Below are positions 25,625-29,381 of a stretch of DNA of 52,235 bases, one piece after another. The notes beneath the pieces were generated by a model. The model saw only the letters and a program-made list of their open reading frames with translations. It was not told the origin of the DNA and did not search any database. Location: contig DATDWZ010000014.1 of assembly GCA_036517295.1 (NCBI GenBank), positions 1 to 52,235 of the forward strand, read 5' to 3'. Each line of letters opens with the position of its first letter. The first letter of the stretch is position 1. The stretch comes from Minisyncoccota bacterium. GTDB lineage: Bacteria > Patescibacteriota > Minisyncoccia > Phycocordibacterales > DATDWN01. The position numbers were made by a program, and so were the translations under genes.

Positions 25625-25759
25625 TCCGCACACTAACTTAAGTATCGTTACTTGTGCTTTATTATTAAATATCTCAGCTTATAATCTTACGCCTATTGTA
25701 CCACAAGACAATCATATACGTAGTAACCATGAGCGCAATACTTAAGTTAGTGTGCGGAC
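25625..25759. repeat. Perfect 21-bp inverted repeat with 93-nt spacer
   Basis: tccgcacactaacttaagtat (25625-25645) is the exact reverse complement of atacttaagttagtgtgcgga (25739-25759). Confidence 0.9.
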
Positions 25760-25795
25760 AGGTTATACTGTATTAGACGTACAAGGGCAAAATAA

Positions 25796-26845
25796 TTACT
25801 GTTTATTTTTTATATGATATTCCAGTTTTCTACTGCGACAGTGAGATACCATACCAAGATATGAAATTAGAATACCTTGAAATTTGGTTGGGGAGATAAT
25901 TCCCGATTTGAGTTTTTTGCTGATCAGACTTATATTTTTAAGAACTCGCTTTTTTGTATGAGTCCTCAGCACAATCATATGAGGTAGCATGACATATCCT
26001 AGAAAATCGATTCCTTTCTTGACTGAGCGGACTTCTACTTTGTTAGGATGAAGTTCTAATCTAAGATTTTCATAAAGGAACTCCCTTATCCTTTCAATCA
26101 ATCCGGAAAGAGATTCTGAATCCTCGGAAACAATGATGAAATCGTCACAATACCTGAAATAGTATTTTATTTTCAACGTATGTTTTACAAATTGGTCCAA
26201 CTCGTTGAGGTAAATGTTGGCAAAGAGTTGACTTGTCACGTTGCCGAGAGGCAAACCTTTGCCTTTTTCCTTTTCAAAACTTCGGAAAAGTAGGTCTATA
26301 AGTTGCATCGTTTCATGACATGATACTTTTTTCTCTATGAGACTTCGCAATATAAAATGGTCTATTGAATCAAAAAACTTTCTAACATCACATTTCAAGA
26401 CATGTATTTTTCTTTTCCAATTCCTGCTTACTTTTCTACAGGCCACAAAAGACCGTTCCACACCGAGATGTGTTCCGTGTAAATCTCGCGACGAATACGA
26501 GTCATGTATAAAATGTTTATCAAAAATCGGATAAAGTAGGCGATATATCGCCTGATGTACAATACGGTCATAAACGCTTGCTTTGTGTATATGTCTGCGT
26601 TTTGGATCATAAACATAAAAAGCGGAGTATGGCCTATGATGATAATGTCTCGAGGTCAAATCTTCATACAATTGAAAAATATTATCCTCAAGATTCAGTT
26701 CAAATCTAGCCACATCTGCCTTTTTTCTTTTACCCTTCTTAAATTCTTTCCACGCTCCAAATAAATTTGATAGACTTATAATATTATGAAACAAATTCCC
26801 TTGAACGGTGCCCCCCCCCCGCAGCGATGTTGATATTTCCATCAT
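25796..26845 (-). CDS. Diversity-generating retroelement reverse transcriptase
   Basis: RT domains with the DGR-type motif LPLGNVTSQLFANIYL ([ILV]GxxxSQ) and the catalytic YCDD. It sits beside the Avd, TR and VR. Confidence 0.92.
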   Translation of the reverse strand: MMEISTSLRGGGTVQGNLFHNIISLSNLFGAWKEFKKGKRKKADVARFELNLEDNIFQLYEDLTSRHYHHRPYSAFYVYDPKRRHIHKASVYDRIVHQAIYRLLYPIFDKHFIHDSYSSRDLHGTHLGVERSFVACRKVSRNWKRKIHVLKCDVRKFFDSIDHFILRSLIEKKVSCHETMQLIDLLFRSFEKEKGKGLPLGNVTSQLFANIYLNELDQFVKHTLKIKYYFRYCDDFIIVSEDSESLSGLIERIREFLYENLRLELHPNKVEVRSVKKGIDFLGYVMLPHMIVLRTHTKKRVLKNISLISKKLKSGIISPTKFQGILISYLGMVSHCRSRKLEYHIKNKQ

Positions 26846-27182
26846 TCATAGTATTAAACAAGTATACACGATTATTTATCAGACAGGAAAAAAATTACCA
26901 AAAAGCGATAAATTAGGTATTCATGCTTACATTGAAGGCTTGGCTCGGAATATACTAGAGCTGCTTATTTCAGCAAGTTTTAGTTATAAAAACAAAAAAC
27001 CGGAAGTTTTGGAAAAGGCTAGGATACTTCTTGAGGTATTGAAACACTTTGTTAGGGTAGAGTACGAACTCCATATCATCGACGAAAAAGCCTATATAAG
27101 GATTGAGTCCGGTATTATAGAAACCTCAAAAATGACAAATGGTTGGATAAAATATCTTTCTCAACAAAATACCCCGACGTAG
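26808..27182 (+). CDS. avd: Avd-like accessory variability determinant (four-helix-bundle / 23S rRNA IVS protein family)
   Basis: About 124 aa, helical, with the pattern ...VYTIIYQTGKKLPKSDKLGIHAYIEGLARNILELL... typical of the family. The start is uncertain; GTG 26808 is the only canonical in-frame start. Confidence 0.72.
   Translation: MPPPRSDVDISIIHSIKQVYTIIYQTGKKLPKSDKLGIHAYIEGLARNILELLISASFSYKNKKPEVLEKARILLEVLKHFVRVEYELHIIDEKAYIRIESGIIETSKMTNGWIKYLSQQNTPT
26811..26820. repeat. C10/G10 homopolymer tract
   Basis: Ten consecutive C on the plus strand. It lies in RT codons 9-12 (RGGG) and avd ORF codons 2-5 (PPPR). Confidence 0.95.
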
Positions 27183-27204
27183 TCAGAGTATTTGTTAAAA
27201 CTTC

Positions 27205-27319
27205 TGGCGAAGACCGTTCGTCGGGTTCGCATTGTCGACGGTACACGCGTTCACGTAGACCCTCGAGGTGTTCGGGAGCCAGTACACGTAGGGGACGTTG
27301 CCATCTGTGTAGCGAGAAC
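27205..27319 (-). other. DGR template repeat (TR)
   Basis: 115 nt align to 27612-27726 at a constant offset of 407 with 17 mismatches, all at plus-strand T (= minus-strand A) in this copy. Confidence 0.92.
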
Positions 27320-27532
27320 AGTCTTTCTGTGAATTTTCTTCCGTTTCACCGATTCCCTGTTTCCAAGGTCTCTGGGTTATACCCTCAGGTGCGAGGCACT
27401 GTGTTGCATCATCACATCTAGAAAAATCTATGCATAAACACTCACAGGCAGTTTTATTTTTTGGCAAACTATTATGTTTTTTATAAAAAAATAAAAATAC
27501 ACTAGTTTAACAGCCAAATTTAGTATAAGAAA

Positions 27533-27567
27533 TATCCGGCACCAACGCAAAGCGTTAGTGCCGGATA
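27533..27567 (-). promoter_or_regulatory. 16-bp GC-rich hairpin downstream of the VR/target stop (terminator and/or DGR homing-associated stem-loop)
   Basis: tatccggcaccaacgc-aaa-gcgttagtgccggata. The single non-Watson-Crick position is G.U only in the minus-strand transcript. Confidence 0.7.
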
Positions 27568-27601
27568 CAAGGGTAAAAATTAAAAAGGTTAGAGGGAAAA
27601 A

Positions 27602-28354
27602 CTACGCTGCTTGGCGAAGACCGAACGTCGGGTGCGCATCGTCGACGGGACACGCGAACACGCAGACCCACGAGGGGCGCGGGAGCCAGCACACGCAGGG
27701 GACGCGGCCATCTGCGTAGCGAGAACCTGTGCAGAAGGTCATACCCGTGTTGTCCAGATGCTGTCCGGTCTCCACAAAGTACTTGACCTCAAACACCATC
27801 CTCTCGAGGAGTGTCATGCCGATGCTGCCGGCCATGTCGCTATCTCGCGTAGACTTGCCCAAGAACTCGCCATCTGGCTCGACACCGTCACGAACCCAGA
27901 CGGCGTAACTCATAGTCGATGTCCGGGTGTTGACCGTGACGCTCGCGTCCAAATCCTCCGCGTAGACCCAGACCTGGAACTTACTCCGCATAATTGCCAG
28001 AGTTGCATTCATGGAAAGGCCCATGGGAATGAAGATGAGGCGCCACGAGCCAACTTTCGGCCTCTCGCGCACGACAACTTCCGAGAAGTCCGTGACCATT
28101 TTGAAGTGGTCTTGATAGAACTTCTGCCATTCGGCGCGCACTTCGGCATACGGGTCAGCGGTGATCTCAAACACCTTTTCCAGCGCCTTGCGCAGGACGG
28201 TGTTCTTGTTTCCGAGCAGGTGTTTGACCTCCTCGAACGACAATCTCGCCAGAACACCAGCGATGAAGCCGGCAAGCGAGATGATCATCTCCAGAGTCGG
28301 CAGCCGCTTAGGCGCCTTCTTATCGGTCGAGTTCTGTCCTGGCTTTGTGGCCAT
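27602..28354 (-). CDS. DGR target (variable) protein with a C-terminal CLec-like VR domain
   Basis: 250-aa ORF whose last about 38 codons are the VR. The C-terminus ...WLPRPSWVCVFACPVDDAHPTFGLRQAA resembles the ends of CLec/FGE-type DGR targets. An SD (AAGGAAAGAGGG) lies upstream. Confidence 0.85.
   Translation of the reverse strand: MATKPGQNSTDKKAPKRLPTLEMIISLAGFIAGVLARLSFEEVKHLLGNKNTVLRKALEKVFEITADPYAEVRAEWQKFYQDHFKMVTDFSEVVVRERPKVGSWRLIFIPMGLSMNATLAIMRSKFQVWVYAEDLDASVTVNTRTSTMSYAVWVRDGVEPDGEFLGKSTRDSDMAGSIGMTLLERMVFEVKYFVETGQHLDNTGMTFCTGSRYADGRVPCVCWLPRPSWVCVFACPVDDAHPTFGLRQAA
27612..27726 (-). other. DGR variable repeat (VR)
   Basis: Counterpart of the TR. 13 codons differ from the TR reading frame (for example N>R, Y>C, N>F, T>P). 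Confidence 0.92.
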
Positions 28355-28426
28355 TTTGTCCCTCTTTCCTTTCTTGTGAAAAAACGATTTGGTGACACCA
28401 CGTCACCCTTTCTACTTTCAAACCGT

Positions 28427-28455
28427 ACTATATATTAAATATATGGCTGTGTCAA
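28427..28455 (-). promoter_or_regulatory. Near-consensus sigma70-type promoter for the DGR target gene
   Basis: The minus strand reads TTGACA, a 17-nt spacer, then TATAGT. The palindrome ggtgac-accac-gtcacc (28391-28407) lies in the leader. Confidence 0.6.
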
Positions 28456-28502
28456 TACATTTTCGTAAATACCCTTATTATAAGCCACTTTCGGCTTCAA
28501 AC

Positions 28503-29381
28503 CTAAAGCTTTTGCTCGGCTGAAATAAACTCTTCCAGTTCACCGTTTAATACAGCGTCTATGTTAGAGGTCTCTACGTTCGTTCTGTGGTCCTTGACCA
28601 TCTTGTACGGATGCATAACATAAGAGCGGATTTGGTTCCCCCATTCGATCTGGGTGGTTTTGGATATATACATCCCCTTTTCTTTAGAAATTCGTGCTTC
28701 TTCCATAGCCTTGTAAAGTTTTCCGTGCAAAATCTGCATGGCTTTTTCTTTATTTTGGCCTTGAGACCGTTCGTTGTCACTCTGCGCCGAAAGATTTGTT
28801 GGGATATGGACAACACGAACAGCGGTTTCTCTCTTGTTTACGTTTTGACCACCAGGACCTGAGGAGCGAGAGAGTTCGACACGGATCTCACTCTCTGGAA
28901 TCTCAAAGTCTTTTACTTTTTCGAATTTCGGAATAACCTCAACCATTGAAAATGATGTATGGCGCAGAGATTTGGCATTGAAAGGCGAGATGCGAACGAG
29001 ACGGTGTACGCCAGACTCGTTTTTCAGAGTTCCGTACGCGTTCTTTCCGGATATCTCGATAGTTATATTTCTGTAACCACCGTGATCATTTTCGTTCTGA
29101 TGTAGAACTGTCACACCAAAACCGGTCTTGGAACAAAATTTTAGATACATATTGAGAAGAATAGCAGAAAAATCTTCGGAGTCGTCACCCCCTGCTCCGG
29201 AAAATATGGTCATGACAACATCTCCTGGGTCGTATCTGCCAACTCCGACGATTTCAGCCTTTAACTCTTGTATTCGGCGCAAAGTGGCTTGAGCCTTGTC
29301 TTTGTTAGACCAAAAAGTCGTCAATTGCATCTCGGCTTCAAGCATTTCAAGTTCTTTTTGTAACTTTTCTTTATTATCCAT
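28503..29381 (-). CDS. prfB: Peptide chain release factor 2 (short, single-frame form)
   Basis: SPF tripeptide (ISPFNAK) and GGQ (SGPGGQNVNK). The ORF is uninterrupted and I saw no frameshift site. Confidence 0.9.
   Translation of the reverse strand: MDNKEKLQKELEMLEAEMQLTTFWSNKDKAQATLRRIQELKAEIVGVGRYDPGDVVMTIFSGAGGDDSEDFSAILLNMYLKFCSKTGFGVTVLHQNENDHGGYRNITIEISGKNAYGTLKNESGVHRLVRISPFNAKSLRHTSFSMVEVIPKFEKVKDFEIPESEIRVELSRSSGPGGQNVNKRETAVRVVHIPTNLSAQSDNERSQGQNKEKAMQILHGKLYKAMEEARISKEKGMYISKTTQIEWGNQIRSYVMHPYKMVKDHRTNVETSNIDAVLNGELEEFISAEQKL

Follow-up and report, generated by a model that had tools for sequence, protein, structure and literature searches.

Poly-G/C tracts of at least 7 nt switch at about 1e-3 per division in the AT-rich genome of Campylobacter, length changes of +/-1 nt turning translation ON or OFF (PMC4965091), and a conserved intragenic G-tract in the pilus genes of Bifidobacterium breve, an ON/OFF switch based on replication slippage, is out of frame (OFF) in the reference sequence, with a productive length in a minority of cells (PMC9187656). 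For diversity-generating retroelements (DGRs), whose canonical cassette is set out in the passages considered here of a large survey (PMC5758913), a 2026 paper described the natural regulation of activity as open and an "exciting frontier" (PMC12875486). Here we analyse a 52,235-nt stretch of contig DATDWZ010000014.1 from a Minisyncoccota bacterium (the window), in which ten consecutive C (G on the minus strand) lie in the head-to-head overlap between the 5' ends of avd and of the DGR reverse transcriptase (RT) gene. The comparative evidence suggests that this tract is probably a slipped-strand contingency switch gating both DGR proteins.

The tract resembles the poly-G/poly-C contingency loci of Campylobacter jejuni, and also those of Neisseria and Haemophilus, in being intragenic, set in an AT-rich background and naturally polymorphic by +/-1 nt, with lengths of 7 to 13 nt (mode 9 to 10) here and around 8 to 13 nt there. 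It differs in that contingency loci mostly concern surface structures or restriction-modification, with one gene per tract, whereas two divergent genes and a mutagenesis machine are concerned here, and in that the tract is conserved over a phylum-level clade rather than one species. As in the B. breve pilus genes, most assembled relatives are out of frame (53 of 69), but the gene class is different, two genes are involved, and heterogeneity is read from assemblies, whereas B. breve is a high-GC host whose heterogeneity was established by error-corrected sequencing. The combination of a probable simple sequence repeat (SSR) contingency locus with a DGR appears to be new, and a single tract common to two antisense-overlapping start regions is an unusual architecture. 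A reading of this DNA made from the letters only (the sequence-only reading) had proposed such a switch, which is not known to have been described for DGRs, and no description was found in the DGR literature searched, a comparison outside which the 2017 survey of CPR (candidate phyla radiation) and DPANN DGRs falls; the passages covered of the large survey (PMC5758913) make no mention of the tract.

The sequence-only reading had started from the ten consecutive C at 26811-26820 and their uniqueness, both of which hold. This is the only G/C run longer than 5 nt in the window (GC 41%), where chance alone should produce 0.014 runs of at least 10 nt if the bases are independent and 0.07 if they follow a first-order Markov model. 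Its placement in codons 9-12 of RT (..S L R G G G T..) and codons 2-5 of avd (V/M P P P R) was likewise exact for the open reading frames (ORFs) as assembled. Eleven loci of the strain, assembled independently from several samples with MEGAHIT and other assemblers, contain an identical G10 with the same flanks, so that it is no one-off assembly error.

Related loci were fetched from species-representative genomes and metagenomes (160 in total, 159 of which could be anchored on the invariant Trp of the AW.EF motif). Outside the strain, the closest RT homologues are at most 69% identical and belong to Patescibacteria; the N-termini as called include Gly-Gly-Gly in nearly every case, preceded by varying frames (MNNRNI.., MMEIS.., or a later start). 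We found a G-run of at least 7 nt at the avd/RT junction in 88 of the 159 anchored loci, located 54-100 nt upstream of the Trp codon, with lengths of 7 (6 loci), 8 (7), 9 (31), 10 (30), 11 (9), 12 (4) and 13 (1). The run-bearing loci come from tiny groundwater bacteria of many candidate phyla of the CPR, and their RTs range down to 40% identity (median 53%). The 768 kb of fetched sequence contain 98 G/C runs of at least 7 nt, at least 82 of them at the junction, which corresponds to about 5.5 runs per kb at the junction versus 0.013 per kb elsewhere, a roughly 400-fold enrichment. Among distant DGR loci from viral contigs (RT at most 48% identical) the tract was found in only 1 of 80 (Fisher P about 1e-19 versus the relatives). 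This lone locus, L186 (IMG/VR UViG 3300025669_000701), has G11 at 1441-1451 and an RT 46% identical to that of the window, and could represent either a phage of Patescibacteria or a contig of Patescibacterial origin that was assigned to viruses.

It is highly improbable that the tract is a functionless neutral mutational hotspot or a sequencing or assembly artefact. Homopolymers are error-prone and some contigs do end at the tract; an apparent G12/G9 pair with identical RT (L147 and L159) is ambiguous, since the L147 contig begins only 5 nt ahead of the tract and shows substitutions in that stretch, and was not counted as polymorphism. The same population nevertheless yields the same length across assemblers and studies (G10 in the strain's 11 loci, G11 in all of L260-L262), the enrichment is at the exact position, the tract is retained among RTs that have diverged down to 40% identity, and substitutions would interrupt a neutral run. 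An artefact is excluded by this reproducibility across assemblers together with the deep conservation.

Six loci lacking a G-run (L074, L131, L161, L063, L095 and L146) carry dinucleotide repeats at the junction, namely (GT)7, (GT)8, (GT)10, (CT)12, (CT)18 and (GA)11, 60-135 nt upstream of the AW.EF Trp codon. The avd ATG lies beyond the repeat in these loci, of which four or more are out of frame by a single repeat unit. The protein cluster of P0081 and P0143 likewise has (GA)n-encoded 'RERERE' N-termini that differ in length and upstream frame. In loci without any repeat, the avd and RT starts are back-to-back and non-overlapping (CAT..ATG, with a spacer of about 0-20 nt).

The start codons assumed by the sequence-only reading are not the conserved ones. 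Comparison of the relatives instead points to two conserved ATGs on either side of the tract (Table 1), which are in frame at G9/G12 and not at the assembled G10. The ATG-to-ATG overlap has a median of 59 nt across 69 loci, with the run inside; in run-bearing loci the median distance from the upstream ATG to the run is 29 nt on the RT strand and 19 nt on the avd strand. When the tract was changed by -1, 0 or +1 nt in silico and the frame of the upstream ATG scored for RT and avd, the two genes had the same in-frame length class in 42 of the 43 loci where each has a single such class, and with a better anchor a common class for both ATGs was obtained in 69 of 78 loci; this agrees with the claim that a slip of one nucleotide shifts both genes at once, although the concordance is partly geometric, either ATG being antisense to a codon that the opposite gene reads in frame, hence our use of histidine codons as a further test. 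The codons opposite the ATGs encode His in the contexts 'xCHNIF' (RT) and 'DIPVVH' (Avd). RT His codons near the tract are CAT in 83 cases and CAC in 2, versus 619 to 335 (65% CAT) in the RT body (P about 1e-13), and the N-terminal Avd His codons are CAT in 78 and CAC in 8, versus 71 to 47 (60% CAT) in the Avd body (P about 1e-6). CAC would be expected at its background rate if only the proteins mattered, yet CAT is in excess, indicating selection on the conserved ATGs, which would thus be the selected starts.

Further observations indicate that both proteins are read through the tract. An ATG, GTG or TTG between the tract and the conserved RT core is present in only 19 of 87 run-bearing loci, 23 have not even a near-cognate codon, and in 83 of the 87 no stop interrupts the RT frame from the tract on. 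For Avd, no in-frame start past the tract comes before residue 44, so that initiation beyond the tract would cost the protein the first helix of its bAvd match. These data bear on a frame-independent role, in which the tract would lie in the 5' untranslated regions of divergent transcripts, both proteins starting downstream of it, and act as a promoter spacer, a transcription roadblock or an RNA or DNA structural motif, for example in an RNA that contains the template repeat (TR) and enters the RT gene. Such a cis element would fit the strict placement of G on the RT-sense strand (88 of 88 loci), a TTG situated 16 nt downstream of the tract in the window and preceded by AAGGGA, and TATAAT-like boxes close to both ATGs. 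It does not fit the scarcity of RT and Avd starts past the tract, the codon-level selection on the antisense ATGs or the capacity of dinucleotide repeats to stand in for the G-run; moreover, both conserved ATGs lie outside the tract, placing it downstream of both starts rather than between promoter elements. No RNA family was matched in an Rfam search (E <= 1) of window positions 25700-28500, and a sigma-70 promoter and terminator scan found nothing around the tract and no sigma-70-like promoter spanning it. Given the start-codon evidence we therefore regard a frame-independent role as improbable, and the fallback of the sequence-only reading, in which RT starts at a TTG past the tract and the tract sets promoter spacing, is disfavoured by the same 19 of 87 loci. 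Promoter-spacer phase variation of the kind known from the Bordetella fim poly-C was also rejected, because of the outlying ATGs and the lack of a spanning sigma-70-like promoter in the scan.

Other signals around the starts are less telling. Only 4 of 46 long ORFs (at least 150 aa) of the window have a Shine-Dalgarno-like motif; with such motifs nearly absent from the genome, ribosome-binding sites are uninformative for the choice of start. TATAAT or TGnTAnnnT-like boxes occur 3-12 nt upstream of the ATG at many window genes, a hint which suggests that short-leader or leaderless mRNAs are widespread in this organism. Conserved TAnAAT-like boxes precede the RT ATG by 12-17 nt, and an A/T-rich box lies upstream of the avd ATG; these were rejected as start evidence, being confounded by the coding constraints of the opposite-strand gene.

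The switch would operate as follows. A hypermutable simple-sequence tract would sit within the short head-to-head coding overlap of avd and RT, and both proteins would start at ATGs beyond it and be translated through it as Gly-Gly-Gly (RT) and Pro-Pro-Pro (Avd). With codon-aligned antisense ATGs, one length class (modulo 3) would be in frame for both proteins, and other lengths would truncate one or both. Slipped-strand mispairing during replication would alter the length by +/-1, giving rise to subpopulations, heritable yet reversible, that have mutagenic retrohoming switched ON, partly ON or OFF. In the window, G9 and G12 are predicted to be fully ON, the G10 consensus to provide RT via a secondary ATG and Avd only via a weak GTG, and G8 and G11 to be OFF (Table 1); from the conserved ATGs, G10 would give peptides of only 15 aa (avd ATG) and 21 aa (RT ATG). 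The sequences show directly the tract and its conservation, its place relative to the selected ATGs, the coupling of the frames, the length polymorphism in natural near-clonal populations and the recent activity of this DGR. We infer that the length changes arise through replication slippage, that they switch expression of the proteins and that selection keeps the tract for that effect. The on/off switch of mutagenesis put forward by the sequence-only reading is thus supported, its action on expression being predicted from the DNA sequence.

Table 1. Coordinates of the DGR locus in the window, with the products predicted at different tract lengths
Feature	Position	Strand	Remarks
Homopolymer C10 (+) / G10 (-)	26811..26820		Unique in window; putative slipped-strand switch
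avd/RT 5' coding overlap, head-to-head, 64 nt	26786..26849	.	ATG-to-ATG, tract inside
Conserved avd ATG	26786..26788	+	Antisense of RT His20 codon CAT; Avd frame at C9/C12 (131/132 aa)
Conserved RT ATG	26847..26849	-	Antisense of Avd His14 codon CAT; RT frame at G9/G12 (350/351 aa)
Secondary RT ATG	26843..26845	-	In frame at G10; second ATG at 26842-26840
avd GTG	26808..26810	+	Sole in-frame avd start at assembled C10; no Shine-Dalgarno-like motif upstream
DGR reverse transcriptase ORF as assembled, 349 aa	25796..26845	-	RVT_1, E = 7e-24
avd ORF as assembled, 124 aa, GTG start	26808..27182	+	bAvd-like Pfam match
Template repeat (TR)	27205..27319	-	115-nt repeat
GC-rich hairpin, 16-17-bp stem, 3-nt loop	27532..27568	-	Just downstream of VR and target stop codon
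Variable repeat (VR), 3' end of target gene	27612..27726	-	Repeat pair with TR
DGR target gene, 250 aa, no Pfam match	27602..28354	-	ORF ending with VR
Predicted products at G9/G12			Avd 131/132 aa from ATG 26786; RT 350/351 aa from ATG 26849
Predicted products at G10 (assembled)			Avd 124 aa, only from GTG 26808; RT 349 aa from secondary ATG 26845
Predicted products at G8/G11			Avd none; RT none

Differences between otherwise identical contigs bear out the length variation that a switch of this type would entail. In a first sister population, three contigs with identical flanks have G11 (L256), G13 (L257) and G12 (L258), and L257 and L258, with 0 mismatches in 2,747 nt, differ solely by one G. 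A second sister population comprises G9 (L259), G10 (L263) and G11 (L260-L262, from three assemblers and at least eight contigs); here L260 matches L263 without mismatch over 4,023 nt, a single G again being the difference, with the variable repeat (VR) being the only other variable stretch among the contigs of this population. Both conserved ATGs are in frame at G13/G10 in the first population and at G9 in the second, and the commonest state differs from these. Tract length also varies between moderately related loci whose flanks are collinear (L053 G9 and L065 G7; L133 G11 and L135 G10; L098 G10 and L101 G12), and members of 90%-identity RT clusters have N-termini that are the same DNA in different frames, as the contigs L256-L258 confirm at the DNA level for one cluster. 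In the window strain, G10 is present in 11 loci and G11 in L011 alone, a contig whose first base is 10 nt short of the tract; L005, which shares its JGI sample with L011, has G10 and ends 116 nt past it. With both contigs breaking at the tract, the assembly graph must have split there. Across the family, contig starts at the tract are threefold more frequent than expected (9 observed versus 3, P = 0.003). Contig ends of related loci also accumulate 800-1000 nt upstream of RT, where TR and VR lie. The locus shares with contingency loci a repeat of at least 7 G/C, a placement at which length changes are predicted to alter expression, and also length polymorphism, of which the strain's own G10/G11 difference is the weaker instance.

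Assembled tract lengths are spread over all frames. The assembled length is the shared in-frame class in 16 of the 69 loci that have one, the remaining 53 being one nucleotide off, and as assembled neither conserved ATG is in frame in 45 of 78 loci, even though nothing else disrupts their RT and avd ORFs. Relative to the assembled length, the in-frame class is -1 in 17 loci, 0 in 11 and +1 in 14 (chi-square P = 0.53); the fixed out-of-frame relation that would mark a programmed frameshift was not found, as all three classes occur.

This spread would also be expected without frame selection on the DNA, as under RNA-level recoding, in which the RNA polymerase stutters or the ribosome shifts on GGG_G or CCC_C. 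Any DNA length would then give a small, near-constant fraction of in-frame Avd and RT, a throttle rather than a switch, and the DNA length would be nearly neutral. The locus does resemble programmed slippage and frameshift sites (dnaX, IS elements, prfB) in having a homopolymer in a coding region with ORF parts that are often out of frame. Homopolymer slippage becomes efficient around 9-10 nt, as known for A/T runs in dnaX and IS elements, which is where the lengths cluster here, and the window DGR is active despite its G10 consensus. On the other side, classical programmed sites have a fixed frame and tract, whereas the ATG-to-body offset varies here, with lengths of 7 to 13 nt that differ even within populations; the dinucleotide repeats at the junction are typical DNA-slippage devices and are not known as transcriptional slippage sites; efficient transcriptional slippage is documented mainly for A/T runs; and length polymorphism is seen directly in the DNA. 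We consider RNA-level recoding the less likely explanation, but a live one: DNA-level switching and RNA-level rescue would each account for assembled lengths that disregard the frame and for DGR activity in a G10-consensus population, and the two mechanisms are compatible and may act together. It is the dinucleotide repeats and the direct DNA length polymorphism that lead us to favour a DNA-level component.

Several points weigh against the slipped-strand switch. The DGR is active in a population whose G10 consensus puts the conserved ATGs out of frame, which would mean either that G10 is functional via alternative starts, or that a minority of G9/G12 cells is responsible, or that slippage at the RNA level rescues expression. 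G is on the RT strand in every run-bearing locus, an orientation that a pure slippage device does not need and that could stem from shared ancestry or from a further role at the RNA level. RT start codons occur in two or three frames at some loci, so that RT is not always switched. The strain itself is consistently G10 in 11 assemblies, its single G11 sitting at a contig end, and the evidence on length comes from assembled contigs rather than from the read level. Finally, the start codons are deduced from comparative codon statistics.

Beyond the window, we see about even chances that a whole clade of Patescibacterial (CPR) DGRs possesses a selected "second-order" contingency locus that stochastically and heritably gates targeted hypermutation. 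Its device would be the G-run or an independently recruited dinucleotide repeat, with most cells or populations OFF or low and retaining the target-protein variant they have, and a minority diversifying, a proposition that in our view could equally prove right or wrong. If the slippage switch is real, one nucleotide of slippage would control both essential proteins of the DGR, a principle that is not known to have been described for any DGR. Unrestrained retrohoming would erase useful target variants, and a slippage switch would be a simple form of heritable bet-hedging, in which the hypermutator's own on/off state is itself hypermutable. The tract is widespread, being shared by related loci from many candidate phyla of the CPR, a group rich in DGRs to an unusual degree and seldom brought into culture.

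The DGR of the window is complete and recently active. Its RT contains the DGR-type motif LPLGNVTSQ and has thousands of homologues among DGR-type RTs of Patescibacteria. The match of Avd to the Pfam bAvd-like family (E = 6.7e-8) covers residues 14-116 and profile positions 5-106 of 107 and scores 33.4 bits, below the gathering score of 40 bits; the products of the orthologous neighbour genes are annotated as PF22296. TR and VR are 85% identical over 115 nt, and all 22 mismatches are at TR adenines (A-to-N, minus strand). Twelve further assemblies of the strain (L001-L012, 99.8-100% identical) differ from the window almost exclusively in the VR, at TR-adenine positions, with 10 such differences in L005 and further VR differences in L004, L008 and L010. 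Near-clonal assemblies that differ almost only at these positions indicate that the DGR is diversifying in the population. A DGR-type RT, TR/VR adenine mismatches, an adjacent avd gene and ongoing VR diversification are thus all present at the locus. The sample with the most divergent VR (JGI 3300025317) is the same sample that contains both G10 and G11. In L012 (ENA ERZ28563641 scaffold_51694, about 1726-1850) the 407 nt between VR and TR are gone and the VR has TR bases, a TR/VR collapse that is most likely an assembly artefact of the repeat.

The cassette resembles that of Bordetella phage BPP-1 (mtd-avd-TR-brt) in its [I/L]GxxxSQ-type RT motif, the presence of Avd, the adenine mismatches between TR and VR, the position of VR at the 3' end of the target gene and the hairpin after VR. 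Unlike the BPP-1 avd-TR-brt operon, target, TR and RT are on the minus strand and avd is inverted, facing RT and overlapping it head-to-head, with an SSR in the overlap.

Automatic gene calls at identical or near-identical loci give RTs of 305-357 aa and Avd proteins of 80-124 aa, or leave avd uncalled, depending on tract phase and caller, and the 5'-end annotation of these DGRs is systematically unreliable. Among the cluster members of the strain's RT, called at 348, 349 and 305 aa, the G9-type N-terminus (MNDGNINIAAGGG...) was not found. In practical terms, avd and RT are given wrong starts or are cut short by gene callers in most of the genomes concerned, and the tract is also a place of contig breaks.

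Minor observations concern the surrounding sequence. The spacer that separates the RT stop (25796) from the start of ftsE contains a perfect 21-nt inverted repeat (window 25625-25645 and 25738-25758), its arms 92 nt apart. For ftsE itself, gene callers choose a shorter start than that of the long ORF in the window, and a look-up with the long start gave no match. The RF2 gene of the strain has a 9-nt indel between assemblies (window 28896-28904 versus L012), and a gatC-like gene of a sister population has a 7-nt indel (L262, about 2688-2694, versus L260); such indels are in-frame or near-frame.

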